From positions 31,914-95,913 of the IMG/VR virus record IMGVR_UViG_3300033075_001508: 64,000 nt of DNA, one strand, 5' to 3'. The position numbers and the translations under genes were made by a program. The notes under the pieces are model-generated. The model searched no databases. It was not told the DNA's origin and saw only the letters and a program-made list of their open reading frames with translations. Below are positions 4,701 to 64,000 of the stretch, in pieces (the stretch's first letter is position 1; each line of letters opens with the position of its first letter). The DNA is from a virus (taxonomy: Duplodnaviria > Caudoviricetes).

Positions 4701-4702
4701 TC

Positions 4703-12419: not shown

Positions 12420-13433
12420 ATGTCTACACCTAATGTGTTAGTGACAGGTTGCTGCGGATACATTGGCTCCGTTTTGGTGGGACAACTTCTAAACGCGGGA
12501 TGTCGTGTCATTGGTGTCGACAACCTGTTCTATAAGAACGGCTACGCCGTCCTCCCCTATCTGGGTCATGAGCGTTTCCAGTTTTTCAGAATGGATGTCC
12601 AGGACACCAGAAATCTTGCGTTCCTTGCGGAGCAATGCGACGTCATTATTCCTCTGGCCGCGATGGTCGGAGCGCCCATCTGCGAGAAAGACGAACATCA
12701 TATTCGGTGGGCAACCTCCATCAACTCCTGGTCCATCACCGATTTGGTGGAGAGCCTAAGCCCGAACCAGCGAGTCATCTATCCAAACACCAACTCTGGG
12801 TACGGCCAGACCGAGGGCGACCGGTACGTCACCGAGCATGACTTGCTTGCCCCCATCTCCGTTTACGGAAAGACCAAGTGCGAGGGCGAGAAGGCGGTTC
12901 TCAACCATCCGAACGGCGTCAGCTTGCGACTTGCCACGGTCTTCGGTGCGAGCCCGCGCATGCGGATGGACCTGATGGTGAACGACTTTACGTGGCGGCT
13001 CTTCAACATCCGGCATCGTCTCAATTTGCGCGAATCTGGCAAGACGATTGGTACGACCAAGGCGGACGTACAGCTATCCATTTACGAACCACACTTTAAG
13101 CGAAACTTCGTTCATGTCCGTGACGTGTGCAACGCCTTCCTGTTCATGCTCGGTCGGCATCACCTACGCGGTCCGTACAACCTCGGCTTGCCTACGGCCA
13201 ACCTGACCAAGATGGAACTTGCTCACGCCATCTGCGACATCCTGGGCCTCGACCGCCGCGTTGTGGTCGTCGGGAACGGGGAAGACCCCGACAAGCGCAA
13301 CTATTTGGTAAGCAACGAGAAGATTCTCTCAACAGGATTCTTGTTCAAGCACACCTTGGAAATGGGTGTGCGCGAAGTCGAAACCGTTTGCTCTACTTGT
13401 TCCACGCAACTTGGAGATATGAGGAATTGTTAA
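12420..13433 (+). CDS. NAD-dependent epimerase/dehydratase
   Basis: VLVTGCCGYIGS, YGKTK, LRLATVFG and RNFVHVRD motifs. Confidence 0.9.
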   Translation: MSTPNVLVTGCCGYIGSVLVGQLLNAGCRVIGVDNLFYKNGYAVLPYLGHERFQFFRMDVQDTRNLAFLAEQCDVIIPLAAMVGAPICEKDEHHIRWATSINSWSITDLVESLSPNQRVIYPNTNSGYGQTEGDRYVTEHDLLAPISVYGKTKCEGEKAVLNHPNGVSLRLATVFGASPRMRMDLMVNDFTWRLFNIRHRLNLRESGKTIGTTKADVQLSIYEPHFKRNFVHVRDVCNAFLFMLGRHHLRGPYNLGLPTANLTKMELAHAICDILGLDRRVVVVGNGEDPDKRNYLVSNEKILSTGFLFKHTLEMGVREVETVCSTCSTQLGDMRNC

Positions 13434-13631
13434 ATGCGATGCAGCGAATGCGAGCGTCCCGTTCTGGTAATTCCGCTACGGGGCAGAAAGCGAAGCCGTA
13501 AAGCCCGCGCCGGCATTCCGGTCTCCATTAAAGACCACGACCTTTGTGCCAAATGTTGGGAACGAGCCCAGAACCAGTTTCATGCGGCTCGGCTACTGAG
13601 AGAACAGGAGTTGGAAATAAATGCAGCGTGA
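13434..13631 (+). CDS. Small Zn-finger protein
   Basis: CSEC...CAKC; abuts the upstream stop. Confidence 0.6.
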   Translation: MRCSECERPVLVIPLRGRKRSRKARAGIPVSIKDHDLCAKCWERAQNQFHAARLLREQELEINAA

Positions 13632-13938
13632 CCAGATTCAAGAGCTAGAACTTCCGCATTACACAGCATACACAAAAGACGATACCAGCACGTTCGACTT
13701 TGATAACGACGAACATTTCTTCGTAGACATCAGCAAAGATGGCTCTCACAACAAACCGAGCGGCTTTGTGTCGGCGACTGTGACTTTGTTGTTCTTTCTC
13801 GCCTTCTTGTCTCTTGGCGTCATTACCGGTATCCGGTTTGGGCAAGACCTGGAGCGTGAGCAAGCGATGGCAGCAAAAGTTGGACGCTACATTATCAACG
13901 AAGAAACTGGTACAAAGGCGTTCGTGTACGGACCTTAG
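13621..13938 (+). CDS. Single-pass membrane protein
   Basis: Hydrophobic segment FVSATVTLLFFLAFLSLGVITGI. Confidence 0.6.
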   Translation: MQRDQIQELELPHYTAYTKDDTSTFDFDNDEHFFVDISKDGSHNKPSGFVSATVTLLFFLAFLSLGVITGIRFGQDLEREQAMAAKVGRYIINEETGTKAFVYGP

Positions 13939-27198: not shown

Positions 27199-30100
27199 TT
27201 ACTCAAGGTTCAAACCGGCGTCTGGGAACTTGTCTCGGAACACCTGGTTGAGGTACTCTTTGATTTTCGCCACAGCCATCTTCTCGAAGGCCGGGGTAAT
27301 CGACGCCAACACTTCCGCGCCGTTGAAGATGAACTCGTGGGTTTGACGTCCAACGACTTCCAATCTGGATGGGAAGTTCGACAAGGCTCGGGACAACTCT
27401 TGAGCGACAGTGCCGAAGGCCGTCATGGCATTCACCAACCCGCTCGAAGACGGACCGAACCCATTCATGGCCGCAGCCAATTCCGGAGCCCCGTCAATCT
27501 TGCTGGAGGTTTGAGCAGGAAGGGTTCCCGTCTGCTGACGTTGTGCCGGCGTTCCACCAACTGGTCCACCAGAAGCGAATCGTTGCACGTTGGCGTAGCC
27601 ACCCATGTTCTGGATAGCTCTCCTGCTTAACACGAACTCGCCAGGTGTCAACAATGCCGGGACATTATCTCGGTCTCCAACCCCACCGACACGACCACCT
27701 TCTGCGAAACCCGCGACTCCCGTCCCGATTAGCCCGCCTAGGCCACGGTTATTCAGGAACCTCTGACGAGCAATCCGGCCCCGAATTTGGGTCTCGAACA
27801 GATTCTGCTGGCTGAGCCGGTCACGACTTTGTTGGCGACCTTGCAGCAAGCTTTGGTTGACACCCGCTTGCGTCTGGCTATCAGCACGGCGTAGCCCGAA
27901 TGCCGCAAACGCATTCCCTCGCTGAACCTCAAGTTGACGTTCCCGCAAATTAGATTGGGCACCGTAGTCGCGACGAACAGACGAGCGCGCGTCGGCAATG
28001 GACACCGACTGACGTTGTAGTGCGTCTCGCTCTTCACGAGTCAATCGGCGTCCCAATCGTTCTTCCTCGCGAGCTACCGCTTGTTCGAAGAGCCTGTCTC
28101 GCGTACGTTCGTTGAAGGCTACACTACCAAGCGCGCCAAACGGGTCGGCGGCTGCTAAACGGCCGTATAAACCGCTACTTGAAATCAAATGCGTAGCTTC
28201 GCGGATGTCAGCTATTTGCCGTGCCACTACCATTCGGCGTGCATGCGCTCGGTCCGCTTCTTCAGCAATAGGCGTGTTACCCGCAATCCATTCCTCTTCC
28301 TCCGCTCTTCGGCGTCTACTTTCTTCCTCTTCCAGTGCTGTCGCGTGGGCGTCTACCGCCCTGCTACGAAAATCGAAGAAGCCACCGCCTGCGAGGTAAA
28401 CGGGACCGTTCGCGTTGTTGATACGGTTGAGCAGGGAACGGTTGTGTTGTGCCGCCTCGCGACGAACCACAAATTCACCCGGACTCAGCATCGCCGGGAC
28501 CGTGTCCGTGCCTTGTGCGCGGAACGTCCGTGGGTCCGGAGTCCTACCCCCAAACCGGAATGGCGTAGCCCCGACCGAGCCGCCAGACGCAAACCCTGTA
28601 GGCGCAGGCGCAGGGGAGTCTGTAACAGGATTGAACGCTCGGTAGATTTCAAGAAACTCATTGAACCGACGAACTTTCAAGAGGAAGTCGCTCGGACTCA
28701 ATCTGTTTGTCCCTCTTTCGTGAAGCTGTAGCTCTCCTGCGTAGGTGCGAAGCAGTCTGGTGCTAGAGTCTTCTCCGACATAGTCGTTACGGTTGTACGC
28801 CATCCGGATGCTCTCCCACTCCATCCGGTTGGAGAACAAGTCTTGTAGCTGGGAGTACAACCGGAGGTTGTCATGCCGTCCCAACAGGTCAACACCGCTA
28901 CTCATCGACTGAAGCGAAGCCACCTCCCGCTCGGTTTCGCTTAATGCCTGTATCCTCGCACTCAACCTTTCCTGCTCACCCATGAAGCTTGGCGGAAGGA
29001 AAGTTGCCGGGTCTGTCAATTCGATGACGGACTGAACGACAGCAGCATCTCGTATCGCCCGTAATTCCGCCAACTGGTTCACAACTGGGCGCACACTGGT
29101 TCTCGCGCCAGTACGCTCTTCCAAGCGCCTGGTCGCCGCTTCTTCTTCTGCTGCCGCTCGCCTTCTGCCTTCAGCTATCTCGGGAGTGTCATCACGACGC
29201 AAGATGGACTCGGCGAGCCAGACTGCCGGACGTAAACCTTCGGCCACTAAGTCTCCACCAACACTGACCGTGCTGGCCGTGAAATCCGTTACGGTGCCGA
29301 GAACTTCTCCAACTGGGCCACGAACATCCTCTCGTACACGACGGCCGGAATCGGCAAAAGTGCTGCGAAGGCCAGACTCGTCGCTGAAGCGGGCTCTGCC
29401 GGTAAGGGAGGAAAGCCCGCTCAAGCCAAGGTCGGCTAACGCCACTCCAAATCCTAAACCGCCTGTACCATAGCCAACGGCAAGGTCGGTTGCCGCTCTG
29501 GTTGTTGCCGGAATCGCTCCCCTCTCGGCGGTGTCGCGAATCAAGTTGTAGGTGGTTAATGCCGTTCCACCAATACGGACCGCCCTACCAAACGCGCTAC
29601 CTCGTGCCGCAGGCTCGGGTGCGGGTCTTTCTGGAAGTGGGGTACGACCAGTGCTTGGGCGAGCGGTTACCGCCTCCTCCATGAAGTACCGCTCAAAGGA
29701 ACTGCCTCCGGTTGGAGACGCCGGACGAACCGGACTCAAGGTCGGAGCCGTTCCCGTTCCCCAACCACCAGTAGGGGTCGCAACCGCCAATCTGGACAGC
29801 GACTCGGCCGTAATAGCCGGCGCAGTAGGGGTCCGACCAAACAAACCGCTGAATAATCCTCGAATCGTAGTGCGAGGACTAGAGCTTGTTGCTGGGGTAG
29901 TCGCAGGCGCTGGTGCCGGCGTTGTCGCTGGAGCCCCGAAGCTCGTCCTGGTGAACGGAACCGGAGCGGGCGCTGTTGCAGGAGTTGCTACGCGTCTGGT
30001 GGCATCGTCTGCCCACAACGTACGCAATCTATCCAGGAAACCGCGTCTTGCTGCTGCCGGCGTCGAGGTAGCTGGGGCGGGAGCGGGAGTCGCGACCGGC

Positions 30101-33100
30101 GCAGGCGTTGCCACCGGAGTTGGTCTTGCGGCACGCCATCTATCCAAACCCTCAGTTCCCAACGTGGCTGTGGTTGTCACGCCACGAGGAGTTCCGGTTG
30201 GAGTCGCTGTGCGCAGAATGCGTGCGGCTACATCATCAGCTGTTTCGCCAGCGGCAGGAAGACGACTTAATACTCGGCTGCGAAATTCTTCGGCAACACT
30301 ACGGAGTCCAGGTCTAGAGTCTGCTCTTCCAGTAGCTACGTCAGAAAACAAGTCCGCGAAGCCTTCAGCCCAAATAGACGAAGGCGTGCGATAACGAGCC
30401 TCGATTCTAGCTAACGGCCTTAATGAATCGCGACCCGACAGGTAACGCTCTGCAATCGTTCGGTCGATGCCTGGTCCGCTAGAACTGAATCGCGTAGCAA
30501 GGCCAGCCTCCCTCGCCAGCAGTCGGTCCGCACCGTGTCCAAGTTCGTGGGACAAGACCGTCATAAGCCGTTCGTAACTGTCGATACCGGTTCTGGACAA
30601 ACTGATGGTGCCACTCGTTAGTCCATATCGACCCGTAGTTGTACCCGGCAACGAACTGGTGAGCCGAATTCGGCTGTATAGCGACCTGGTGTCGACCCCC
30701 GTTGCAGAACGGATATCGGCAAGCGCCCTACGAATGGTGTCAGAGTTCAGAACGAACCCGCCACCTTCCAAGTAGACGGGGCCGCGAGAATTATTCACCC
30801 TTTGCAGGAGAGCAGAATTCGCTCTCGCGCTTTCGCGGTTCACCACAAACTCGCCAGGGGTGAGCATTGCGGGAACAACATCAGTGCCGCGAGGACGAAA
30901 CATCGACCCGGCCACGCCACCGCCAGCCCTGGTCTCAACTGGGAGACTGAGAGCGGTGCGTGTCGAAGCAATCGCGCGAGCCGTTTCCGCCAACTCGTTG
31001 TTGACGGCCGTTATGCGTCCCGGGAGGCTCTCCAGGCTGTTTGCCGCTCCATCAAAGGCTTGAAGTGCCCTAGTAATGGATTCTCCGTTTAACGACGACA
31101 ACGAAGATGTATCAAAACCAAGCTCTTGCAATCTTCCAGCAGCCGCATTGCGACGACGTACAGCGTCACCAGCAACGGTTCCTGCCGCGCCGCCGACTTC
31201 AGCCTGGATAGCTCTTTGCAGATGCGGAAGGAGGAACTCGACCTGTTCGCCAAATCCACGCGTGCGACCACGGGCCGGGTCGTTTCCAACGTTCTGTTGA
31301 GTCCTCCTGATAATCGAATTGCGTTGCTCGACGTTAAGGTTCGAGAACACCCCCTCTTGCAGAAACGAGTTCAGTCTGCCTTGCAAATCGGTAGACAGAT
31401 TTCGCCCAGAGAAGAAGTTGTTCGGTGCGGTACCACTTAGAGCGCCGCGAAGGTTGTTACGAGCATATCTGCCACCATCGACTTGAACGCCTTGCGTGTT
31501 GGTGAAGACAGAATTGTTTTCGAAGTAGGTGCGGAACAAATCGAGATTGTTACGTGCAAGTTCAGCCTGGCTGTTGTTTCGAATTCCCAATCTGCCAAGC
31601 AGGTCTCTCTGCGCACCTTGTGCGGTCAACCTACCACGGTCTGTTTCCAGTTGGCCTCGGCGGTTGTTGAGAGAAATCAGGTTGTTCTGACCCAGTTCAC
31701 GAGACAGTCTTGCAAAGAACGTATCGTGTTGCCGCTGAAGATTGTCCCTTATTTGTGTCGCAGACTCACGTTGTGCGGCAGCAGATTCGCGCAAAGCTGT
31801 TTCGGCTGTTCTGAGGTTGCCAATAAGCTCTGCTTGCAAACGGTCACGCTCGCCAGTTTCCGACGCGGTCAAGCCGGCAGCTGCCCCGTAGGTGTTACGG
31901 AACAACTGGTCAACAACATCATTTCCGGTTCGTCCACCCAACAATGGATAAGATGCGGAGCCAATGCTTCGCCCGACATCGCGAGCCGAGCTAATTTGCT
32001 CAGAACTGTAGCCAGCAAAGTTTCCTTGTTGATTCGCCCGAATGAGCAGGGAAAGTCCACGGAGCAGTTCGGACTGTTGCTCTGGATTCGACGTCGCAAC
32101 TCTCTCAACAAACGACAGGCGGGCCTGACCTTGCTGCTGAAGGTGGTTTAATCGCTCCTGGATAGCGGTGTTTCTTTGCGAGGCGTCGGCCAGGTTTTGC
32201 AAAGCCCGGTTCGCATCGGACGCCCGCTGTCTCAGATTGACCAGTTCGCGGGTCGCGCTTTCAAATGCAGGTCCTTGGCCTCCTGTTGCCTGGAAGACCT
32301 GCTGTTGACGCTCCGCAGCGTCTTGAATCCGCGAATACAAACCGCGAAGCTGTCCGCCAATTGCGGTCGGGTCTGTCGCAGCAGCGCCACGCAGCCCACT
32401 CAACCTCTCCTGCCGAGCTTGGAAATCGGATTGCAGGAAAGAAATGGGTATGCGCGAGGTTGCATTCGAGTCGAACGAATTCTGTCCGGCAAACTCGACT
32501 TGAGTGCGATAGGTTTGAATCCTTGCCGTGTTCGCCCTGTCCAGGGTTTCCGCAACCTGGCTCATCCTGGCCGAAAACTCAGCCACGCCAGTGATGAACT
32601 TGTTCGCCTGCTCTTCGAGTTGCTTGGCGATTCTCGTTCCGGCTTCCTTGAGCGGGTCGGCAAAAGGCGCAATGAGTTTGTCGGCAAGCTTCGTGGCGTC
32701 AACCTGAAGCTCACGGTAAATGTTCTCGATGCCGCCCGACTTGGTCAACTGATTGAGTTGGTTGACCACCGTGTTGATGACCGACCCAATCTGCTGGTTG
32801 CCCTGAACAACAGCGTCCCCACCAAATGCAGTCGTCAACGCGTTGCGAACAGATGTGCCGAAATCTTCCTCGCTCGAAGGGCTGTTCGAGGCAACCTGCG
32901 AGAGGATACTCGGGAGAAGTTGAGCGGCTCGTGTAGCCACCGAACCTGTTTCGTACAGGCTTGCGCCGGCGTTACCACCTACAGCACGGATTGTGCTGAG
33001 CGTCTCAAACACCCCGCTGTCGTTCCTGCCAAGTTGGGTTAGACGGCCCGCGTTCGCCGAGACCTTCACGGCCCCGAGGGTGCCGTTTAGTACATCAGCC

Positions 33101-36100
33101 AGGGCGTCAACGCGAGTCTGCAACAAGCCCATGCTATCGCCAGCCGACTCCACCGCTAGAGCAAACCGTCCAAACGTGTTGACGTTTCGCTCTTCACCAC
33201 TACGGGCTCGGGCGTCTTCTTGCGCGAACCTTGCAGACTTCTGAGCCTCCTGGATGACCTTTTCAAACTCTTTGGTTACCTGAGCAAGCGAAAGCCCACG
33301 AATATCCGCTAAGACGCGGAGCATTGCCTGGTTAAGGCCAGCCCCGCCCGAAACCAACCGTCGCGAAAGAGACTCGACCGAGGCAGACAGGTTGCTCTTG
33401 CCAATCTCCTCAGCTTGTTTGTTCAGTGCCTGGGCAATGCTAGGCAAAGAACCGCCAAAGTCTTGTCGCAGACTTTTAGCTCTCGCGGCTTGCAAACCGG
33501 CAAGGTCCTTGCTACCCACCTCTTTGAGAAGTTTCTCTTCAGTTTCCTTTTGAATCGACTGAAACGCGGACAGGGCGGCTGCGGCCGTACCGGGAGCGGC
33601 GTTGCCACCAGCCTGAGCCAGTGTGGCAATCTTGTCGGCAAAATCTGTAATTGCCTTATTGATTTTCGCCTGGCGGATATCCTTTTCCGCTTCATTCAAC
33701 GAGGTTACGAACCCGTAGACTGCCCCACCAAACGCTCCGATAACACCACCGAGCGGTCCGGCAATCGAAGCCCCGATTGTTCCACCAAGAACGGCACCCT
33801 GAAGCCCACCAGAAATACCCTTTCTAGTGCTGTATCCGCCAGAAAGAAATGCTCCCGTTTCTCCGCGAGTCGCTGCCTCGTCGGCGGAACCGGACTCCTT
33901 TTCAATCATTCCGGATAAAAGTGGGAGACCAAACAGGGTGGCACCTCCAAGACCAGTTCCGGTAAAAGCAGACCCCAGCCTGGAAATTCCGCGAGCGGTA
34001 GCTCCAATGCCGCGAGTAAACTTGTTGGAGTTTGGAGAATTGCCGTACTGCGTCAACGGGGTCGAAAAGAACTCGCCTACCCGGTCGGTAACTGGCGACA
34101 ACCGGTTTTGCAGCCTGGTAAACCAGTACGCGCCAGGAGCGTTTACGCCACGGCTTGCCGCCTCCACTACAGTATCTTGCAGCCCAAGAATTCGTCCTTG
34201 ATTATTGCGAACGATTTTCTTTTTGGAGTCCTTCATCGCCTCCGTGACTTGCTCGGTCGCAATATTGTTGCGTTCGTAAGCCGAGATAGTCGGATAGAGT
34301 TTGCTCAGCAACTCCTTTTGCGCAGACAACAACTCGCGACCAATTTGAGCTTCCTGGCTCTTGGTCACACGAGCAGTAATCGCACCTTTTGTTTCCAAGC
34401 TAAGCAAGTCGCTTCCACCACGACGACTAATCTCTGGCTGGATTCTCTTTTGGGACTGGCGTTCAAGCAGAGCCTCGAAAGAGGCGGTGACGTTTCCGCC
34501 AGCGTTTGTGGTGGGCGTCTGAACTGGAACCCTTTCGCCCTTGTCGTTTGTGTAATATTCGATTCTGCCAGGCTTTGGTAGAAGCAACGCCTCTTCTTCT
34601 TGCTTTGCAAGTTGACGCGCACGAAGTCCGGCCGCCCCAGCTTGTTGTCGAGCCAAAAGAGGGTCGACAGAAGGAGTAAGTTCGATAAGACCAAGTCCGC
34701 CTTCTTCTACGAGCGGGTTATTTGCAAGAGAGCCATCTGGCCTACGATACGCTTGTCCGGAACGCTTGGCTTCACGCTCGCGAATACGCTCACGGAACCT
34801 GTCTCGGTAGCTTGCATCCTGTAGACTTCTGTTCTGATACTCCTCTTCCTTGGTTGGAAGAACGACAGGGTCAGGAATCAAGCCAAGCCCGCTTCCGCCC
34901 AAATCGAGGTTCCGAATATCTTCCCTGCTTAATCCTTGCTGACGCAAACGTCTGTAGGCGTCAAGTTGTGCCTGCGCTTGACGAGCTTCTTCTTCCGCCC
35001 TGGTGAACCGAGTGTCACCTTGAGAGCTTCGGAACCTAAATGGCTTCCTCTTTTCCCCGGAAAACGCGGTTGGTCTGGCTCCGGATGCAGGAACATAGTC
35101 TTCTGGCAAGAATCCAGGCGCACCGTATCTGTGGCTCTCATCCGTAAGCAGGAGAGGCTTCTTGACAATCTCAAACTCCGCGTCTACGGCGGGGTCTGGA
35201 TACCTTTCCCGAGTACGAGTCGACTCATCGAGTCGGACTCGGTAGGGCACCAGGCTTGTTGCGTCCGGAAGATACGTAAGACGCTTCAAGCCATCATCGG
35301 GGCCAGTTTGTGCAGCGCGTAACGACAGAGTAGCCGCTTCCCGCAAAGGCATGGTGGTTACCACCGGAGAGGCTGTCGCCTTCTTTGCACGCATTCGCTC
35401 CAAAAGCGAAGCTGTCTTGCTCGAACCACCCTTTCCGGTTAGTCCTCTCTTCTTCCGGTACTCGTCCACTGCCGCTTGTTCAGCTGCAAGCTCTTCCCGT
35501 TTGATAACCGATTCTTCTACTTCACTGGCTTTCAGTTCGGTTCCACCCGCAAGGATTGGACTTTCCGAACGAGCGTTGGGCACTACAGACAGGAAGCTCG
35601 GTAAATCGTCGTCATCGCTTCCGCCTTCTCCCTCTTGACGCTGAACCTTGCCAGTTCTGAGATACTCCTGAAGCTTATCATGACCAGATTTAACTTGATT
35701 CCTGAAAATCGCTGTGCGGGCAAACGACCCTAGGACTCGCTTAAACGCTGCCTCGGCTCCTTCGTTCGCTTTGGGAGATATTTGGCTCTCATCAAATGTG
35801 CCAACCACATTTTTGATGCCGCGATAAATATGTTGTTCAGCCCTGTCGGGAGCATAAGCACTTAATACCTGATACTCCTTTTCGTTCCTTACTCTCTCAA
35901 CCTCCTTGTTGATTACCTCAAGATACTTCGGCTGATTGAGTCTTGCCTTTTCCTGCTCAGTAAACGCGCCGTCGTACTTACCAGTTTCTCGAAACGTCAA
36001 CGCTTGGCTCGCGTCACGAGCAGTGGCATTCATCACCTGTGGAGCAGTATCTTTAAAACCAATTTGCTCCTCAAATCGCTTCATCGCATCTTGCAATTGC

Positions 36101-38040
36101 TCGGCCGTTTTAATAATTCCAGCAAACGCTTTTGCGCCGGTCTTCTCAAAATCAACGAAAACGCCAACGATACCATTGGCTGCATCGCCCAATTTAGCAA
36201 TCTCTTTGAAAATATCTGGGAAGTCCTCCCGCGAAAGCTGGTTGAGACCTACAGGAGTAGCAGACCCAGAAGCTAACCGGATTGGTCCATGCAACCCAAC
36301 CATTCCGCCCGTATTATAACCCTGGCCGAAGTTCATCCGGTGAAGGCGTGCCGCCCCAATACGAGCAACCGCCCGCTTGTTGAGAACGTACTCGCCCGGG
36401 GTCAGATAAGCAGGGACAGTGTCGTGGTCACCTTCCCCTGGAACAAGGCCTCCGGTCGCCAGCCGCCTTGGAGCGTTTGTGGTTGTACCGTAGACTCCCC
36501 TGCTCACCGCATTGGCGGCGAATGTACCGATTCCCTGGAACACCTTGATGGTTGCCAAGGTGGTCAAAATCGGCAGAAGCGGACGAGCGAAGTCTAAAAG
36601 TTGCGCGAAGCTCTTCGCAATGTTCAGTATGTTGTCGGCGAGAGACTTGAAGCCCTCGGACTGCGTAAGAGCCCGAAAGAATTTGAGATACTCTTCCCTG
36701 ACCTTGGCGGTCTTGTTGAGCAACCCATCCTGGGCCTTTTCAGCCTGGATTTGCAAAGTGATTTGGCCGGTCTGGGCAACGTTCACCGCCTTCTGGGCTT
36801 CCGCGAACTGCTGAATAAGGGGAATAACCTTCGAAATCTGGCGGTAGCCACCCAACTCTTCGATGATGGCCGAATATCGTGTGTCCGTTGGACGAAGGCC
36901 TCGCAAACCCTCCGAAATACGCTTGACCGCCTCGAACGCCCCAACAAACTGATTCTGGAGATTCGCGCCCGTTCCGTTTGCTAGACGAGACGCTTCTTCC
37001 CGAGTGTAACGCAGGTTGACCTGGAGAGCCTTCAAGGCGTCTACAGTTTCGGAACGTTGGAGACGGGTAAAGATGGTCCGTAAACCAGTCGAAATAGTTT
37101 CGGCCGACTCACGAGTGGTCGAACGAACGGCGGTAAACAATCCTAAAAGCTCGTTGAGGTCGCCACCTGTTTGCTTGAACGCTCCACCAGACTTTCGGAT
37201 AACTTCAACTAAGTCAGACGCTTCCGTTGCAAATTGTCCAGCCACAGCGGCGACGGAGCCTAGGTTCCCTTTTAGATTGCCGACATTTTTGTCGAACTGT
37301 TGGATGATGGCGATGGAGCCTTCCAGGATTTCATTCATCGACCCAAAGTTCGGGGACAACGAAGCCTGAGCAACCGCCTCTAAAGCGACAGATGTGTCGT
37401 CAGCGGCAATGCCGGCTTGCCGAAACAAGATGGCCGCGTTCGCCAATTCTTTGCTGGACACGCCCAGGCTGGTCGACAACCTGTTGATTGTGGACTCAAT
37501 TGCCTTGATTTTATTTGGGGTATCACCGGACACCTGAGCAATCTTAATCATCGACTGCTCAAACTGTATCGCTTCGCCGACGCCCGACCGTACGCCTTGG
37601 ACAAATCGGACCATAGCTCCAGCAGCAACCGTAAATGCTACGAATCTACGAGCAGCTAAACCGGCCGTAGAGCCGAACTGAGCAATCGCGCTGGAACCAA
37701 GCTGCGCATGCTCTCTAGCGACCTTCAGGGTCTGGTTGGCTGTTGCGACGGCTGTGTTGAGCGAGCCAACGGACGCGGCGGACGTACGGGCTCCTTGTCC
37801 AATGCCGCCAATACCCTGCGTCAACGCAAAGGTAGAACCTTGGACTTCTCGCATGTTGGCACGCAACGAATTCATACGAGAGTTCAGGTCATCCAGTGTA
37901 CGTAGGGAAGCAGTCGACACTCGCACGTTGACGTCGATGCCTTGGCTCTTGAAGGCATGATGAACCTGCTGTACCGCTTCCCGAAGTCCAACAACTCGCT
38001 GAATGTAAAGCTGAGAGTTGATATTGAATGGCTGCGACAT
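27199..38040 (-). CDS. Tape measure protein (3613 aa) with accessory domains
   Basis: N-terminal TP901/PhageMin_Tail-like region (FEQSMIKIAQV...RESAETISTGLRTIFTRL), long helical stretches, Gly-rich hydrophobic segments; follows the tube and chaperone genes. Confidence 0.93.
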   Translation of the reverse strand: MSQPFNINSQLYIQRVVGLREAVQQVHHAFKSQGIDVNVRVSTASLRTLDDLNSRMNSLRANMREVQGSTFALTQGIGGIGQGARTSAASVGSLNTAVATANQTLKVAREHAQLGSSAIAQFGSTAGLAARRFVAFTVAAGAMVRFVQGVRSGVGEAIQFEQSMIKIAQVSGDTPNKIKAIESTINRLSTSLGVSSKELANAAILFRQAGIAADDTSVALEAVAQASLSPNFGSMNEILEGSIAIIQQFDKNVGNLKGNLGSVAAVAGQFATEASDLVEVIRKSGGAFKQTGGDLNELLGLFTAVRSTTRESAETISTGLRTIFTRLQRSETVDALKALQVNLRYTREEASRLANGTGANLQNQFVGAFEAVKRISEGLRGLRPTDTRYSAIIEELGGYRQISKVIPLIQQFAEAQKAVNVAQTGQITLQIQAEKAQDGLLNKTAKVREEYLKFFRALTQSEGFKSLADNILNIAKSFAQLLDFARPLLPILTTLATIKVFQGIGTFAANAVSRGVYGTTTNAPRRLATGGLVPGEGDHDTVPAYLTPGEYVLNKRAVARIGAARLHRMNFGQGYNTGGMVGLHGPIRLASGSATPVGLNQLSREDFPDIFKEIAKLGDAANGIVGVFVDFEKTGAKAFAGIIKTAEQLQDAMKRFEEQIGFKDTAPQVMNATARDASQALTFRETGKYDGAFTEQEKARLNQPKYLEVINKEVERVRNEKEYQVLSAYAPDRAEQHIYRGIKNVVGTFDESQISPKANEGAEAAFKRVLGSFARTAIFRNQVKSGHDKLQEYLRTGKVQRQEGEGGSDDDDLPSFLSVVPNARSESPILAGGTELKASEVEESVIKREELAAEQAAVDEYRKKRGLTGKGGSSKTASLLERMRAKKATASPVVTTMPLREAATLSLRAAQTGPDDGLKRLTYLPDATSLVPYRVRLDESTRTRERYPDPAVDAEFEIVKKPLLLTDESHRYGAPGFLPEDYVPASGARPTAFSGEKRKPFRFRSSQGDTRFTRAEEEARQAQAQLDAYRRLRQQGLSREDIRNLDLGGSGLGLIPDPVVLPTKEEEYQNRSLQDASYRDRFRERIREREAKRSGQAYRRPDGSLANNPLVEEGGLGLIELTPSVDPLLARQQAGAAGLRARQLAKQEEEALLLPKPGRIEYYTNDKGERVPVQTPTTNAGGNVTASFEALLERQSQKRIQPEISRRGGSDLLSLETKGAITARVTKSQEAQIGRELLSAQKELLSKLYPTISAYERNNIATEQVTEAMKDSKKKIVRNNQGRILGLQDTVVEAASRGVNAPGAYWFTRLQNRLSPVTDRVGEFFSTPLTQYGNSPNSNKFTRGIGATARGISRLGSAFTGTGLGGATLFGLPLLSGMIEKESGSADEAATRGETGAFLSGGYSTRKGISGGLQGAVLGGTIGASIAGPLGGVIGAFGGAVYGFVTSLNEAEKDIRQAKINKAITDFADKIATLAQAGGNAAPGTAAAALSAFQSIQKETEEKLLKEVGSKDLAGLQAARAKSLRQDFGGSLPSIAQALNKQAEEIGKSNLSASVESLSRRLVSGGAGLNQAMLRVLADIRGLSLAQVTKEFEKVIQEAQKSARFAQEDARARSGEERNVNTFGRFALAVESAGDSMGLLQTRVDALADVLNGTLGAVKVSANAGRLTQLGRNDSGVFETLSTIRAVGGNAGASLYETGSVATRAAQLLPSILSQVASNSPSSEEDFGTSVRNALTTAFGGDAVVQGNQQIGSVINTVVNQLNQLTKSGGIENIYRELQVDATKLADKLIAPFADPLKEAGTRIAKQLEEQANKFITGVAEFSARMSQVAETLDRANTARIQTYRTQVEFAGQNSFDSNATSRIPISFLQSDFQARQERLSGLRGAAATDPTAIGGQLRGLYSRIQDAAERQQQVFQATGGQGPAFESATRELVNLRQRASDANRALQNLADASQRNTAIQERLNHLQQQGQARLSFVERVATSNPEQQSELLRGLSLLIRANQQGNFAGYSSEQISSARDVGRSIGSASYPLLGGRTGNDVVDQLFRNTYGAAAGLTASETGERDRLQAELIGNLRTAETALRESAAAQRESATQIRDNLQRQHDTFFARLSRELGQNNLISLNNRRGQLETDRGRLTAQGAQRDLLGRLGIRNNSQAELARNNLDLFRTYFENNSVFTNTQGVQVDGGRYARNNLRGALSGTAPNNFFSGRNLSTDLQGRLNSFLQEGVFSNLNVEQRNSIIRRTQQNVGNDPARGRTRGFGEQVEFLLPHLQRAIQAEVGGAAGTVAGDAVRRRNAAAGRLQELGFDTSSLSSLNGESITRALQAFDGAANSLESLPGRITAVNNELAETARAIASTRTALSLPVETRAGGGVAGSMFRPRGTDVVPAMLTPGEFVVNRESARANSALLQRVNNSRGPVYLEGGGFVLNSDTIRRALADIRSATGVDTRSLYSRIRLTSSLPGTTTGRYGLTSGTISLSRTGIDSYERLMTVLSHELGHGADRLLAREAGLATRFSSSGPGIDRTIAERYLSGRDSLRPLARIEARYRTPSSIWAEGFADLFSDVATGRADSRPGLRSVAEEFRSRVLSRLPAAGETADDVAARILRTATPTGTPRGVTTTATLGTEGLDRWRAARPTPVATPAPVATPAPAPATSTPAAARRGFLDRLRTLWADDATRRVATPATAPAPVPFTRTSFGAPATTPAPAPATTPATSSSPRTTIRGLFSGLFGRTPTAPAITAESLSRLAVATPTGGWGTGTAPTLSPVRPASPTGGSSFERYFMEEAVTARPSTGRTPLPERPAPEPAARGSAFGRAVRIGGTALTTYNLIRDTAERGAIPATTRAATDLAVGYGTGGLGFGVALADLGLSGLSSLTGRARFSDESGLRSTFADSGRRVREDVRGPVGEVLGTVTDFTASTVSVGGDLVAEGLRPAVWLAESILRRDDTPEIAEGRRRAAAEEEAATRRLEERTGARTSVRPVVNQLAELRAIRDAAVVQSVIELTDPATFLPPSFMGEQERLSARIQALSETEREVASLQSMSSGVDLLGRHDNLRLYSQLQDLFSNRMEWESIRMAYNRNDYVGEDSSTRLLRTYAGELQLHERGTNRLSPSDFLLKVRRFNEFLEIYRAFNPVTDSPAPAPTGFASGGSVGATPFRFGGRTPDPRTFRAQGTDTVPAMLSPGEFVVRREAAQHNRSLLNRINNANGPVYLAGGGFFDFRSRAVDAHATALEEEESRRRRAEEEEWIAGNTPIAEEADRAHARRMVVARQIADIREATHLISSSGLYGRLAAADPFGALGSVAFNERTRDRLFEQAVAREEERLGRRLTREERDALQRQSVSIADARSSVRRDYGAQSNLRERQLEVQRGNAFAAFGLRRADSQTQAGVNQSLLQGRQQSRDRLSQQNLFETQIRGRIARQRFLNNRGLGGLIGTGVAGFAEGGRVGGVGDRDNVPALLTPGEFVLSRRAIQNMGGYANVQRFASGGPVGGTPAQRQQTGTLPAQTSSKIDGAPELAAAMNGFGPSSSGLVNAMTAFGTVAQELSRALSNFPSRLEVVGRQTHEFIFNGAEVLASITPAFEKMAVAKIKEYLNQVFRDKFPDAGLNLE

Positions 38041-39433: not shown

Positions 39434-40525
39434 CTATCCTTTCTTGCCGCTTTGTACCGTATCCATGAACTGACTGTGCGTCTGAGCCCGAAGGTTTTGC
39501 TTCGTATCAGGCATATCGCTTTCGCTGACAGTTCCCTTCTTTTTCAAGTGTTCAAACCGTCGCTTCTTTATGCTCTTTGCGTGTGGGTCGTTGAGGTTAT
39601 CCACCTTTTCGGCGTCCTTGATGGTTTCCGCCACCAAGAAGACCTCCGACGAATTGCGAATCTTCTCGTTCCCAATAAGGTCCTCGGCCGACACCTTATT
39701 GACACGCTTCTCCTGCTCACGGCGTTGCTCAATCAGCCAACCGTCGAGGGCGTCGTTGTCTTCAATGATGTCATCAGCTGGACGCTCTGGGTGTTCGTAG
39801 ACCGAATCGTAAAGCAGCGACCAGCCGATGAGGCCCCGTTGCTCTTCCGTATAATCCACGGACGGGACGCCAAACAAAGATGGTTCCGATTTTCTAGTCG
39901 ACCAAATGGAGCGCCACGGGTCTGTCCTGGCGATTTCCCGAAACGCGTCCTCTCCAATTCGCTCCTTGGACCAGGCCTTCATTGCGTGGTCGAGCAATTC
40001 GCAAGATTCTTCCCAAAACTCGTCGTGATTGAAAACGGGTGCCCCGTTCGTCCAATAAAGCGAACACCCCATTAGGTAGCGAGACCTGGCCATGCCCGCC
40101 ACTCCTGCGCAAGAGAGGTGGTCCCACTTGTGGCGCTCTTCAAGGGTCCGATAGAGTGCGGACCTTGCGGCGTCCAAGTAAAGGCGAATGGTCTTTTTCT
40201 CCTCCGACCGAAAGGTGGCTCGGAAGAGCTTGATTTTCCATTCTTCGATATCTTTGGGGAGAGTGGTGAGAAGTTTCTGCTTGCTCGCGTCCCAATTGCC
40301 TTCTTCGTACATCCACTCCAGAAGTGCTTCTTCGGTGAATGCGCCTTGAAGTTCGGCCTCTCGCATTTGCTCAAGGTAGATTTCTTGAGCGATGTAGACT
40401 TGTTCGCGAGTTGGGCGTTTAAGCAGGAGAGTCGTCGGCCTGGCTTTTCCTGGTAAGTGTACGTGAAGGCGCACAATGCCAGCGCAGACGCGAGCTACGA
40501 TTAGCTCTTTTGTTCCGCCATCCAT
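39434..40525 (-). CDS. Hypothetical protein, possible tail chaperone
   Basis: 363-aa helical ORF directly after the tube gene. Confidence 0.6.
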   Translation of the reverse strand: MDGGTKELIVARVCAGIVRLHVHLPGKARPTTLLLKRPTREQVYIAQEIYLEQMREAELQGAFTEEALLEWMYEEGNWDASKQKLLTTLPKDIEEWKIKLFRATFRSEEKKTIRLYLDAARSALYRTLEERHKWDHLSCAGVAGMARSRYLMGCSLYWTNGAPVFNHDEFWEESCELLDHAMKAWSKERIGEDAFREIARTDPWRSIWSTRKSEPSLFGVPSVDYTEEQRGLIGWSLLYDSVYEHPERPADDIIEDNDALDGWLIEQRREQEKRVNKVSAEDLIGNEKIRNSSEVFLVAETIKDAEKVDNLNDPHAKSIKKRRFEHLKKKGTVSESDMPDTKQNLRAQTHSQFMDTVQSGKKG

Positions 40526-40587: not shown

Positions 40588-41622
40588 TTACGGACGCAAC
40601 GCTGTGGTTGGGTCCTTCGGGTGGTAAACGGACAGGTCGTTGAAGTTACGATAGCTGTAGGTGCAGCTTGCGTTTCCACCGTTCTGTCCAGCGTTCGCAC
40701 CACCGTAGGTGACCTGCTGGAGACGGTTGCGGGTGCCCAGGTCGAGTTCCAGACCTTCGTGCATCATGATGTAGATTTTGCGGTCGGAGAGGTTCGACTC
40801 GGCGTCTTCGAGAGCGGTGACGTCATCGCCGTACTCGCTCGCCATAACCTCGATGTCGCACTGGACCTCGATAGGGAACGTGACGAAGCGGTGGAACGGA
40901 CCACGCCGGCCAAGCTCGAACAACTGCTCACGGCCGAGGTTGCACGACACGCGAACGGATTGAACGTGAGCGCCGAATCCGTCGTTGCCTTGTTCGTTGG
41001 TGCCGCTGCTCGTGATGCCGGGGATGTCGATGGGCAATAGCGTCTTGCTTGGGTTTGTCGTGTCGGACGCACCAAACAGGATATCTTGACGTTGCTGTGT
41101 TCCACCGGAGCCAGAGATAGCTTGCGGGCTGTCGTTGTTGTCGAAGGCGCTGGCGGTAAAGGTGTTATCCCAGACCTTGTTGTTGCCGACCGCTGTAACG
41201 GACTCAGTAGCGTTGCCCTGAACTTGAATGTTGTAGGACACGTTGCTGATGTACATGCCGGACATCGTGCATTGCGACAGCGGGGTACCGGACGCGGAGT
41301 CCTGCACGTCGCTGTAAATGCTCAGGCCGATGGTCGACTTGACATTGGAACGACCAGTCAACGAAGCGGTTGCTGCGCCGTTGGTTGCCAAAAGGTAAAT
41401 GGGCGGATAACCGTCAAGTACCTTTTCGAGCGTGACCTCGACGTCGGGGATGGCCTCGATGTTCTCGTAAATCGCAAGTTGGCCAATCTCGAACACCTGT
41501 TCCAGGTTGAACCGAGTATTGATGCCAACGGATTGAAGGCCGTGAATGCTTGTGAAGGTATTTTCGCCGCACTTGGAAACTCCAACCTGCTGGACGGCAT
41601 AAAATACGCGCTTATTGGCCAT
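40588..41622 (-). CDS. Major tail tube protein
   Basis: Beta-rich 344 aa with strong codon bias, own promoter motif, CAACAGGAG RBS and downstream hairpin. Two EQxFExG hairpin motifs. Located between the neck genes and the tape measure. Confidence 0.8.
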   Translation of the reverse strand: MANKRVFYAVQQVGVSKCGENTFTSIHGLQSVGINTRFNLEQVFEIGQLAIYENIEAIPDVEVTLEKVLDGYPPIYLLATNGAATASLTGRSNVKSTIGLSIYSDVQDSASGTPLSQCTMSGMYISNVSYNIQVQGNATESVTAVGNNKVWDNTFTASAFDNNDSPQAISGSGGTQQRQDILFGASDTTNPSKTLLPIDIPGITSSGTNEQGNDGFGAHVQSVRVSCNLGREQLFELGRRGPFHRFVTFPIEVQCDIEVMASEYGDDVTALEDAESNLSDRKIYIMMHEGLELDLGTRNRLQQVTYGGANAGQNGGNASCTYSYRNFNDLSVYHPKDPTTALRP

Positions 41623-48205: not shown

Positions 48206-49213
48206 TTACAGAGCGCCAAGAAGGACGCGACGGTTGTCGAGGACGGTGAAACCGTGTTCCCTCCAACCATACATGCCGGCTCGTCCAGCACGGTGGAAGG
48301 TTGGGTCCTCGAAGATTTCGACTTCCTTGCGAACCGGGTTCACAAAGCTGTCGTTGTTTTCGAGGTCGAGGCCGACCACGATTTCAACCTTGTCGGAAGG
48401 CATGGTGCCGCCGAGGGTCGACTCGTAGTAGGTCTGGAACTCTTGGTCTTCGCCAAGCTCGTCAATGTCGTGCAGACGAACGCGGCCGATTCGGGCAACG
48501 CCACCCGTTTCCCAGTTCTGGTAGATGGTCTGGCGGACCGCCTCGGGAATCTGGGTCAAGTCCCAGCTAAGAACGTCGCCTTGTGCTTCTGGGGAGTGGA
48601 ACATGTCCGTCAACTTGCCACGGTTGATGGAGGTGCTGTTGCCACCTGCGCGACGACGCATCATCTGCTCCAGGAGCGACACGAGTCGCTTGGTGAACAG
48701 ACCAGCAATCGCCTGCTCATCGTACGCAACCAGGTTGCGGTTCGCGGCAGCCGTCAACAGCGTATGCCAGCCGTCACGGTTTGCCTTCAGGATGAAACCG
48801 GCTTCCAACACCTGGAGGGCGCGGCCGATAACGTCCCAGCGAGCGTTCTCGCTGTACCGGATGTCCCAGTCGATGCTGTTACCGACCCGGTAAGTCGGAA
48901 CCATGATGTAATCACCCTCGATGTGCCGTTCGGGAATCCGACCGACGTTCGGGATGGTGTACGCCACATGGCGACCTTCAGTGCCAGGGGTCAAGAAGTC
49001 GAGAGGGAACTCGACGGTCTGACCGGGCAGGAAGTTGATGACCTCGAAAATGCCAGAAAGGATGTCGCCCTTCAGCACGCCCTGCTTGAGAGGCAGAGTC
49101 AAAGCCTTTGCGAGTTCGCGTTGGGCAGCGCGGGCAATCGACTCGTCCGCATGACCAGAACGCTTCAGAAGCGCGGTTTCTTCAGCCGTTGGCTGACGCA
49201 TCATCTTATACAT
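48206..49213 (-). CDS. Major capsid protein (HK97 fold)
   Basis: Gene order after protease and decoration; strong codon bias; CAACAGGAG RBS before ATG 49213; downstream terminator. Confidence 0.85.
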   Translation of the reverse strand: MYKMMRQPTAEETALLKRSGHADESIARAAQRELAKALTLPLKQGVLKGDILSGIFEVINFLPGQTVEFPLDFLTPGTEGRHVAYTIPNVGRIPERHIEGDYIMVPTYRVGNSIDWDIRYSENARWDVIGRALQVLEAGFILKANRDGWHTLLTAAANRNLVAYDEQAIAGLFTKRLVSLLEQMMRRRAGGNSTSINRGKLTDMFHSPEAQGDVLSWDLTQIPEAVRQTIYQNWETGGVARIGRVRLHDIDELGEDQEFQTYYESTLGGTMPSDKVEIVVGLDLENNDSFVNPVRKEVEIFEDPTFHRAGRAGMYGWREHGFTVLDNRRVLLGAL

Positions 49214-49270
49214 GTCTGAGTATTTACTCCTGTTGTTTGCTAGGGTGTTCTTATGGCCCACCCATCGTTA

Positions 49271-61197: not shown

Positions 61198-62044
61198 TTT
61201 CGTCCTCTAAATCCACCGTGTCTGGGGAAAGAATTGGCCTATCAATAATACCGTCTTCAAAAGTGTGGAGCCTACCGAGCCGCTGGTACTCCTTGTCGCC
61301 GGCCATTTTCATCAACCCGGCCTCGCGACCTTCTCGTTCGGCGATATCTTTTTGCATGAGGCTTTTCAACAAACCTAAGAACGACACCTTACCCGTTTCG
61401 ACGTCCTTGATGCGTTGGGCGCGGGTCGCCTTCAGGTCGTTCATCAGGCGGTCGTAACGTTCTTGGAGTTTAACGAACTCGTTTGTTTTGTTTTGCTCGG
61501 CCGACCGAAGCTCGACCAACTTGCTTTCAAGACTGAGGTAGAAGTTCCGCGCGCTTTCATCCCACATGGCAGCGTCGTCGCCATTGGTCTTCATGAACGT
61601 TTCCTGCTGACGTTCCAAGCGGGCGATGTCTTCGCGAGCCCTTCGCCGTTCGATGAGGTTGCGGCTTTTGAGGAGGTCGACCTTGATTGCGTCGAAGATT
61701 TGACTTTCTTCCGAGGCTTGGACGTTGTTGTCGAACTGGCTGACCAGCTTGATGAACTCTTCCTCGAAGTAGCGAATCTCGTCGGTCGTAAGCTCTTGCT
61801 TCAGTCGACGCCACTTTTCAGAGGCGCGAAGCTCTTCCCTGATTTCAATTTGTTTGGTGACACCCACGCTCGATACGACCGGTGCCTGTTTGGTGACCAC
61901 CAACCGGTTCTTCCGGATAAAGTCCGTCACCGTCTCCGGTGTGCGGTTCAACTTGACCGCAATTTCAGCAGGAGAGAGTAGGTCGGCCTTGTCCAGAATG
62001 AACTTCCGCTCCCTCTCGCTGAGTCTACCCCTCTTCGACATCAA
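61187..62044 (-). CDS. HTH plus coiled-coil protein, candidate terminase small subunit
   Basis: N-terminal LSPAEIAVKLNRTPETV HTH, then coiled coil; upstream of the packaging genes. Confidence 0.45.
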   Translation of the reverse strand: MMSKRGRLSERERKFILDKADLLSPAEIAVKLNRTPETVTDFIRKNRLVVTKQAPVVSSVGVTKQIEIREELRASEKWRRLKQELTTDEIRYFEEEFIKLVSQFDNNVQASEESQIFDAIKVDLLKSRNLIERRRAREDIARLERQQETFMKTNGDDAAMWDESARNFYLSLESKLVELRSAEQNKTNEFVKLQERYDRLMNDLKATRAQRIKDVETGKVSFLGLLKSLMQKDIAEREGREAGLMKMAGDKEYQRLGRLHTFEDGIIDRPILSPDTVDLEDESED

Positions 62045-62642
62045 TATCTCCCTTCAGAATATCTTGCACTGCTTGTATGACCAGGCGGCGCTTAGACTTA
62101 GGGACTGAGACGCCCGCCTTCATCTGGAGGTACACCGAACGTAGCTCGATAGGGAGTTTCTCGTCCACAAGACGGATAAGTTCGGCCTGTTCCGCATCCT
62201 GTTCGACCGACGACTCGGTTCTGGCTTTACTTTCCTGTTCCTCGGAAAGATGTTCGATATCCCGAGGCGACATCAGATTCGCCTTGGCAGAGTTGCGTTG
62301 CAGCCATGATGCGTACTTGTTGCAGTACGCGCCGTCCGCCTGGCATGCCGTGCCGGAATGACACTTCTTGCAAGGTGGGTCGTTGCGCCTGAGCTTGTTG
62401 CGGATTAAATTGCAGAGTCGATTGCGGATGTGCGTGTAGACGAAGTTGTCGAGCGGCCGAACGTTGTCGTAGCCTTCCATGGCTTCCAACCCCATAATCC
62501 TGGCTTCCTGCTGAATGTCTTCCAGCGAATAGTAGCCAAAGACGAATGTAGGGGCGAGAATACGAACTGCTTTTTCGATGGATTCGAGGACGTCTTTCTC
62601 GGTCTTTCCAGGCGGGACCTGGAACTTGTAATCATTACTCAT
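62025..62642 (-). CDS. Phage-encoded sigma70-family factor
   Basis: Region 2: YSLEDIQQEARIMGLEAMEGYD...LDNFVYTHIRNRLCNL. Truncated region 4-like segment: L...LR.VY. Confidence 0.8.
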   Translation of the reverse strand: MSNDYKFQVPPGKTEKDVLESIEKAVRILAPTFVFGYYSLEDIQQEARIMGLEAMEGYDNVRPLDNFVYTHIRNRLCNLIRNKLRRNDPPCKKCHSGTACQADGAYCNKYASWLQRNSAKANLMSPRDIEHLSEEQESKARTESSVEQDAEQAELIRLVDEKLPIELRSVYLQMKAGVSVPKSKRRLVIQAVQDILKGDIDVEEG

Positions 62643-63272: not shown

Positions 63273-63584
63273 TTATCCATTATTGATGACATCGAACTGT
63301 TCCCCGGTTTGGTTTCCTGCGTACACATCAGCCACGAACCCAGCGGCCTTCTCGCGAAGCTTTCGCTTGGCGTACTCTTCGGTTTCCCGTCGCCACTGAT
63401 TCGTGCGCACTTGGCCGACAATCACCTCGTACGAATCCGGCATCTGCGCCTCGTGGAGTCGGCCGGCCTCAGCTAAGGCCTTGAACCGGCGTCGGCGGGT
63501 AATTCTCGCCTCTTCATTGTTGAGTCGGTCCACAAACCTCGCTTCGCTTCGGCTGTCGACTACGACAAAGATTTCCTCTACCAC
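63273..63584 (-). CDS. Hypothetical protein
   Basis: GGAGG RBS then GTG at 63584, just after the upstream stop. The ORF-track start at 63803 is probably overextended. Confidence 0.55.
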   Translation of the reverse strand: MVEEIFVVVDSRSEARFVDRLNNEEARITRRRRFKALAEAGRLHEAQMPDSYEVIVGQVRTNQWRRETEEYAKRKLREKAAGFVADVYAGNQTGEQFDVINNG

Positions 63585-63586
63585 TT

Positions 63587-64000
63587 TCAGTTTCCTCCGG
63601 GCGTTACCGCCCCGCGTTGTTTCTCGTAGATTTCCAATGCTTGCTTTGCCAAAACCAAGAGGGTCGCGCCGTCCAGGTGCTGACCATCCAACTCGAACAC
63701 ATCTCCCGAATGAATTTCCTTGAATGCCCAACCGAGGTGAATGAGCAGGGAGCCATTGTTGTCGAACGGCAACCCGAGTCGCCAGCAGTTGCATTTGGTA
63801 CACAACGCCGCTAAAGATAAATGCTTAAACCCCGGATTGGCAACCGCATAGAACTCGATGCCCCACTTGAGAGGGGCTTTGCAGCAGCCGGATTCGCCGT
63901 GTTGCGGATGGACCGGGACCTCGACCGGGAAGTTTACATACCGGTGATAGGGGCCTTGCCGACCCAACTCAAATAACTCTTTCCTGCTCAGGTCCTTGAC
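63587..64000 (-). CDS. Protein with a tail-tube-like 26-aa segment and Cys-rich domain, 5' truncated
   Basis: Frame is open to the window edge: VKDLSRKELFELGRQGPYHRYVNFPVEV...GCCK...CTKCNC. Confidence 0.7.
   Translation of the reverse strand, partial: VKDLSRKELFELGRQGPYHRYVNFPVEVPVHPQHGESGCCKAPLKWGIEFYAVANPGFKHLSLAALCTKCNCWRLGLPFDNNGSLLIHLGWAFKEIHSGDVFELDGQHLDGATLLVLAKQALEIYEKQRGAVTPGGN

Follow-up and report, generated by a model that had tools for sequence, protein, structure and literature searches.

At one end of a viral DNA stretch of 64,000 nucleotides, analysed here as a whole and called the window, an open reading frame on the minus strand (63587–64000; the edge ORF) carries a copy of a conserved hairpin of the tail tube encoded elsewhere in the same window. 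Judged from its sequence and surroundings, what this ORF represents is the 3′ part of a gene for a small accessory protein and not of a tube gene, and it very probably belongs to a family of small proteins, called carriers here, that hold the hairpin module within otherwise unrelated sequence. The tube-hairpin carriers form, as far as sequence comparison can define one, a previously undescribed family of small accessory proteins of phages. The pattern of residue and codon changes indicates that their hairpin copy is kept by selection. The best reading overall, to which we give slightly less than an even chance, combines this family membership with a role as competitive mimics of conserved virion surfaces, most likely towards a host sensor.

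The tube of the window is a 344-aa protein encoded on the minus strand at 40588–41622. It has no match in Pfam or PHROGs, and it is by its predicted fold that it is a T5-type duplicated tail tube. An AlphaFold2 model computed from an alignment of 25 relatives is all-beta (pLDDT 73.7, pTM 0.78) and its top Foldseek matches are T5 pb6, the tubes of DT57C and P74-26 and the major tail protein of SH-Ab15497 (E 5e-8 to 1e-6). The gene lies where a tube gene is expected, between head genes and a tape-measure-sized gene: the minus-strand order runs from TerL and the portal gene to a probable capsid gene further along, then to the tube, the gene for a 363-aa protein directly after it and, beyond this, a 3613-aa ORF. 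The latter, a single frame of 3,613 codons that lies downstream of both genes at 27199–38040, occupies the tape measure position and, if it is a tape measure gene, is unusually long.

In the tube model, a strand (residues 220–228), a protruding hairpin (231–246) and a further strand (252–260) all belong to the second tube domain. The segment shared with the edge ORF maps to this predicted strand-hairpin-strand, structure prediction of the tube having been among the checks suggested by the original prediction. The hairpin motif is repeated within the tube (residues 38–68 and 228–258). The tube has 79 viral relatives, and few blocks of the family alignment are as strongly conserved as the hairpin module. 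The conserved tube hairpin is reported to form the interface between stacked tube rings (PMC13581612). Two side observations concern other members of the tube family. One contig encodes two full-length tube paralogues in tandem (L072:3001–3948 and 3973–4935; 315 and 320 aa). A full family tube gene also occurs in a chromosome of 4.9 Mb that bears the label of a Heimdallarchaeota MAG (L144, CP070695.1:42226–54354); a provirus, the mis-binning of a contig or contamination could explain this.

The edge ORF contains 137 codons and a stop, and its frame, which had been described as running off the right edge, is indeed open to the window end. The window ends with the 95,913-base viral contig (CheckV completeness 63%), and the 5′ end of the gene is missing because the contig stops there. 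Within the first 28 residues lies the 26-residue module copy, DLSRKELFELGRQGPYHRYVNFPVEV (63917–63994, minus strand), which aligns without gaps with tube residues 228–253 (40864–40941). Seventeen of the 26 residues are identical and 24 are positive (BLASTP, pairwise E 2e-11), in agreement with the original count of identities and with its statement that the other positions are mostly conservative. At the DNA level, 51 of 78 bases are identical, the longest identical run being 9 bases, and a recount agrees that 11 of the 17 identical residues are specified by different codons. It had also been pointed out that the listed start at 63967 hides half of the match; this start is the first TTG within the motif, at the Leu of ELG. 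Past the hairpin, the sequence expected of a tube (an EVTC-EIEV strand, GD-V-A, GGDAGGGN and TYSY-FN) is absent. After FPVEV the protein is Cys-rich for 109 residues and bears no relation to the tube, as had been stated from the first.

Attempts to retrieve more of the gene covered both DNA and protein collections. An exact 30-mer from the window end has no match in metagenome contigs, and the small shares of Logan runs X1 and X2 that were covered hold nothing over the edge ORF itself; a Logan contig of run X3 continues 1,104 bases past the window end. Protein searches of the 5.8-billion-cluster collection at near and longer lengths returned no fuller version of the edge ORF, and a length-limited protein search found no relatives of 241–2000 aa. 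By codon usage the frame of the edge ORF is coding-like and the other frames are not.

The Cys-rich C-terminal extension (63590–63916, minus strand; 109 aa) is an orphan. Its codon-usage score (0.126) compares with 0.235 ± 0.109 for true frames and −0.41 for off frames, and it is probably zinc-binding. It has no relative among 1.84 billion representatives, in the 5.8-billion-cluster collection, in Pfam (where nothing matches at E up to 1), in PHROGs or at any carrier locus; the Atlas gives only weak zinc-ribbon or Lar-like leads, all with scores below 0.9. The junction between the motif and the Cys-rich part is spanned by the original assembly only. Independent Logan contigs, all from one run, agree with it base for base and break, with 30-base overlaps, at exactly 63888–63917 and 63585–63614. 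These breaks at both ends of the Cys-rich part may reflect a population variant in which this cassette is missing or swapped. The stretch between the two overlaps measures 273 bases (91 codons, in frame).

The TGA stop of the edge ORF lies 2 bases ahead of the GTG start of the next gene (63273–63584, minus strand; 103 aa), which has a GGAGGA 8 bases upstream of that start. This neighbour is also a partial copy. Its residues 4–61 (63402–63575) match residues 294–351 of the 363-aa tail-module protein (39434–40525, minus strand; copied segment 39473–39646), with 19 of 58 residues identical and 36 positive (BLASTP, E 8e-11). The copied region is thus a C-terminal segment of the protein encoded directly after the tube. 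The 363-aa protein has no Pfam or PHROG match and falls in the Atlas among unnamed viral clusters only; its position makes it a candidate tail assembly chaperone. That the copied block might be the most conserved part of its family was considered and rejected: its conservation is average, ranking 171st among 306 windows in the family alignment.

About 1 kb downstream of the carrier lies a sigma-70-like gene (62025–62642, minus strand; a weak match to Pfam Sigma70_r2), which provided an anchor for synteny. Its product has a DPPCKKCH...C...C cluster between the region-2-like and C-terminal parts that is kept in all seven aligned sequences, and the pattern DPPCK[KL]C helped to find 66 viral loci with a sigma-like gene. 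At none of these loci is a carrier present within 4 kb.

A related contig provides a complete counterpart of the region. L131, a Logan contig of 29,964 bases, is collinear with window positions 40–64 kb, the two sharing 54% identity in the sigma-like protein (L131:4090–4710), 41% in a 285-aa protein and 49% in TerL. At the position of the edge ORF, L131 has a complete gene whose 81-aa product, P0007, carries the hairpin module: about 30 unrelated residues, which include no leader, precede the copied segment, residues 30–74 match the tube, and the stop follows 17 residues after the motif. The Cys-rich extension is absent from this syntenic orthologue. L131 also encodes a full tube of 330 aa, which P0007 matches at 27 of 45 residues (E 7e-20). 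An AlphaFold2 model of the P0007 monomer shows no confident fold (pLDDT 62.7, pTM 0.26).

In both the window and L131 the carrier stands among a few small genes that lie immediately upstream of the sigma-like gene, and in both these genes carry copied pieces of successive virion proteins. The L131 counterpart of the 103-aa gene (L131:3079–3702) matches residues 256–345 of the window 363-aa protein (E 3e-12). In addition to the tube hairpin and this post-tube piece, the L131 block contains a portal piece (14 of 25 residues identical, E 8e-8) and two pieces, in shuffled order, of a 338-aa head protein (E 3e-8 and 8e-6). With the product of window 48206–49261 the head protein shares 65% identity, and both are probably capsid proteins, as suggested by their position and a weak PDB match to a capsid protein. 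The pieces copied are thus, in the window, the tube hairpin followed by the post-tube segment and, in L131, portal, capsid, tube and post-tube pieces.

Similar proteins are found well beyond these two contigs. A phmmer search of 1.84 billion representatives gave 12 matches, all through the motif only, 11 of them being proteins of 69–203 aa with unrelated flanks. After a profile search the set comprised 18 carriers besides the edge ORF, of 67–238 aa and again with unrelated flanks. The carriers that were examined are all complete genes, packed closely among other small genes outside the structural modules of large phages, and adjoin replication, nucleotide-metabolism or glycosyltransferase genes; this accessory-array setting is seen in the window and in L131, L101, L115/G007, L128, L141, L142 and L143. 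Twelve carriers compared with Pfam and PHROGs had no family match, and we found no description of stand-alone tube-hairpin proteins in the literature. The idea of a separate small protein that does not stem from a recent DNA duplication, central to the original prediction, is therefore supported indirectly, by the 81-aa positional orthologue and the 18 other carriers, and also by the failure to find a tube-length version and by the absence of post-motif tube sequence. The search for non-tube carriers of the peptide that it had advised is the one that yielded these 18. Homologues lacking the segment in related phages were to have counted against it; the sole positional homologue found keeps the segment, and most relatives are without the gene.

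Compared with tubes of the T5 pb6 type (DT57C, P74-26, SH-Ab15497), in which the second-domain strand-hairpin-strand is homologous to the module and the same residues are conserved, carriers hold the module only (about 24–45 residues), without the surrounding beta-sandwich. Their 67–238 residues include flanks unrelated to tubes, and their genes lie outside the tail module. The flanks appear to be freely exchanged: a Cys-rich orphan sequence in the window and, elsewhere, zinc ribbons, blocks of the probable capsid protein or twin-arginine leaders. The window module shares the carrier consensus DLGREELFELGRKGPYHRYVNFPVE and is 18–23/26 identical to the carriers compared, reaching 23/26 with carrier P0001; the module profile matches the edge ORF with an E value of 1.4e-17, and in the module tree the window module falls among the carriers. 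A tube and a carrier occur in one genome in three cases (the window, the L131 contig and G007). In G007, the carrier P0001 matches its own tube at 32 of 52 residues, and the stretch HRYVNFPVEVRC is identical in both, including positions that are variable within the family. The window module and the tube of the G007 phage are identical at 20 of 28 aligned residues.

The distribution of carriers is sporadic. The gene is absent from five close relatives, three of them complete. Two DNA patterns for the motif found 36 loci in viral contigs, 35 of which are tubes and one a carrier. A carrier-specific pattern recovered one already known contig and nothing further from metagenome contigs, and a scan of genome contigs gave full tubes only, in three MAGs.

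Several further features of individual carriers and their loci were observed. P0001 (residues ~50–66) and P0011 (residues ~78–94) have a common Cys motif, CxCS-x5-L/F-x3-GCxCG, in their C-terminal parts past the hairpin, and differing Cys clusters recur in the leaderless P0003 and P0010 and in the edge ORF, whose N-terminus lies beyond the contig end. HNH endonuclease genes directly adjoin carriers in two contigs (L142:10521–11192 and L143:9103–9651) and have no sequence link to the carriers. The Cys-rich part of the edge ORF was compared with these HNH genes as a possible relative and this was rejected, there being no similarity. L143 is a 131-kb phage contig; in its replication module, the gene that immediately follows RecA (12867–13898; 343 aa) encodes a full-length distant homologue of the window probable capsid protein (23% identity over 352 aa, E 1e-8).

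Comparison of the carriers with one another points to selection on the hairpin. Between carriers, 15–23 of the 26 residues are identical and only 6–16 of the 26 third codon positions agree, and synonymous sites are, on this measure, saturated; the higher third-position agreement in L131 results from its 68% GC. Set against 80 tubes, carriers show stronger conservation in the hairpin core and weaker conservation in the strands on either side. The residues ELG, P-Y and F-P, conserved in tubes, are likewise conserved in carriers. In a tree of the module, based on a short alignment of 45 residues, carriers cluster together (3 changes, compared with 17.7 for shuffled labels), and a single carrier clade is not rejected (AU p 0.945), which with so short an alignment is weak evidence. 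Recent gene conversion between tubes and carriers was considered separately and rejected, the longest identical DNA runs being 8–16 bases.

Half of the carriers with known N-termini (9 of 18) begin with [KR]RR[NS]F followed by a hydrophobic stretch, as in export leaders of the twin-arginine type. The TIGR01409 and PF10518 models detect the leader in five of these nine, with only P0002 above the curated cut-off. After the predicted cleavage of its leader, P0051, the smallest carrier, would retain little beyond the hairpin. In five carriers (P0002, P0012, P0054, P0056 and P0057) the hairpin is joined to blocks of the probable capsid protein, and a gene adjoining P0012 carries a portal piece (E 6e-13). 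With the recurrent family, the export leaders and the copy in the neighbouring gene, the picture moves from that of one mimic of a tube loop to that of a set of mimics of virion pieces.

A mechanism of mimicry, taken in general terms, has in our view somewhat better than an even chance of being right. Small proteins of this kind would display one conserved surface of a virion protein but not the remainder of the subunit, and this surface would occupy the partner that normally binds its counterpart in the virion. The likeliest partner would be a host pattern-recognition sensor of conserved virion proteins. Since the carrier gene lies ahead of the late genes and in the same direction of transcription, the carrier may be made before the tube, and a mimic made before the tube would blunt sensing. 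The set as a whole would present portal, capsid, tube-hairpin and post-tube surfaces, some strung together and some tagged for export.

Sensors with the appropriate specificity exist. The STAND sensor Avs16 is reported to contact the conserved inter-ring hairpin of the tube, and portal, capsid, chaperone and tape measure proteins are sensed by further Avs families (PMC13581612); what carriers copy is the very structural element described as the Avs16 epitope. DSR2 senses the tube protein, and its inhibitor DSAD1 is a precedent for a small phage protein that counters tube sensing (PMC11087589). No report of DSAD1 as a copy of the tube was found in the literature. We know of no anti-defence protein that acts by copying the epitope that is sensed. 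The Gol peptide of the T4 major capsid protein activates the Lit protease. There, a short stretch from inside a structural protein suffices on its own for recognition by a host defence, as a carrier would. Unlike the carriers, Gol has no gene of its own but lies within the capsid gene, and its effect is to trigger defence, not to block it.

That the partner is specifically a host sensor, with carriers as its decoys, is a tentative proposition which we hold with less than even confidence. Several observations sit uneasily with it. A copied epitope that is sensed might trigger the sensor and not block it. Twin-arginine leaders in half of the family suit the periplasm and are a poor match to cytoplasmic sensors. 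The carrier is rare, being absent from the five close relatives and the 66 sigma-like loci. The copied post-tube segment is not especially conserved. Finally, the junction of the motif with the Cys-rich part is present in the original assembly only, and P0007 was modelled as a monomer without a confident fold. Against these stand mosaics made of several pieces, a gene position that precedes the late genes, a sporadic distribution and flanks that change fast, for which anti-defence decoys are the best fit, if still a doubtful one. The more far-reaching version, in which the carriers are a polyvalent decoy set that blinds host receptors for the core phage proteome and thereby the first anti-defence strategy based on copying epitopes, is in our estimation rather unlikely.

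The partner might instead be the tube itself. A free hairpin could dock in the groove in which a tube-fold ring normally takes up the hairpin of its neighbour, and could cap or delay polymerisation of the phage's own tube, poison the tails of co-infecting relatives or couple the state of assembly to the sigma-like factor. The module is, after all, the inter-ring contact of tubes, both in the tube model and in published work (PMC13581612), and the conservation of ELG, P-Y and F-P in tubes and carriers alike suggests the same contact. The agreement of the G007 carrier with its own tube at family-variable positions (HRYVNFPVEVRC) points in the same direction, as does the location of the genes, which in two genomes come immediately before the sigma-like gene and the late operon. 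An optional gene, absent from most relatives, is however not a core assembly factor, and the window carrier is closer to the tube of another phage (20/28 aligned residues) than to its own (17/26). Mosaics of capsid blocks and tube hairpins would moreover cross-link unrelated assemblies, and export leaders are unsuited to assembly in the cytoplasm. Multi-piece mosaics suit a decoy better than an assembly role. Interference with or control of assembly is judged improbable.

Export leaders invite another interpretation, in which the carrier, provided that its missing N-terminus has a leader, is exported and meets the parts of incoming related phages in the periplasm, where it would block DNA entry in the manner of T4 Imm or TP-J34 Ltp. 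The leader-type N-termini of nine of the 18 carriers, five of them detected by the models, are consistent with this, as is P0051, which cleavage would reduce almost to the hairpin. The target of known exclusion proteins is the tape measure protein, which is located inside the tube (10.64898/2026.03.06.709160; PMC3952083). T4 Imm and TP-J34 Ltp are likewise small, optional phage proteins that act at the envelope on tail components, and half of the carriers have export-type leaders. They differ from carriers in that they are not copies of virion proteins, and the orthologue of the edge ORF, P0007, has no leader. The Cys-rich extension is more in keeping with a zinc protein of the cytoplasm, nothing in the periplasm is an obvious target for capsid and portal pieces, and the surfaces on which a hairpin would dock are buried in the intact tail of an incoming phage. 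We regard exclusion at the envelope as quite improbable.

Whether the carriers have a function at all must also be considered. They could be leftovers, that is, decaying remnants of a partial duplication or illegitimate recombination of late genes or, for the edge ORF, an assembly chimera at the contig end. The order of the L131 pieces (portal, capsid, tube, post-tube) follows that of the late genes, as in a collapsed duplicate, HNH endonuclease genes adjoin carriers in L142 and L143, and the Cys-rich part is an orphan at both ends of which Logan contigs break. Yet synonymous sites are saturated and the hairpin is still more conserved than in real tubes, carriers fall in one cluster and are not each nested beside the local tube, and their genes are complete from start to stop and translationally coupled. 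The position is kept between two phages whose shared proteins are 41–54% identical. The Cys-rich part has coding-like codon usage, and identical DNA runs of at most 8–16 bases argue against recent conversion. Given this pattern of conservation, a decayed late-gene duplicate is unlikely, and non-functional leftovers of any kind are very improbable.

Finally, a truncated or fused second tube paralogue, with some 220 tube residues beyond the contig end and a swapped C-terminus, would fit a motif located at tube residue 228 and has a parallel in the tandem tube paralogues of some relatives (L072), but it is an exceedingly remote prospect given a positional orthologue of only 81 aa whose copied segment follows about 30 unrelated residues, no relative of 241–2000 aa found, a module that resembles small carriers (up to 23/26) more than it does tubes, a gene placed in a small-gene block and not in the tail module, and an edge ORF without the post-hairpin tube sequence.

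Mimicry of virion surfaces thus being the preferred reading, its significance follows from what has recently been shown of bacterial immune receptors, namely that they recognise conserved virion cores, including the tube hairpin, surfaces which phages cannot mutate. A selected family that copies exactly those surfaces would be a direct candidate for the phage answer to such receptors, and its members would provide testable reagents. If carriers act on tails instead, they would represent a new weapon between phages and a natural tool for the control of tube polymerisation. In either case, it would be wrong to write off short pieces of structural genes in phage genomes as debris.
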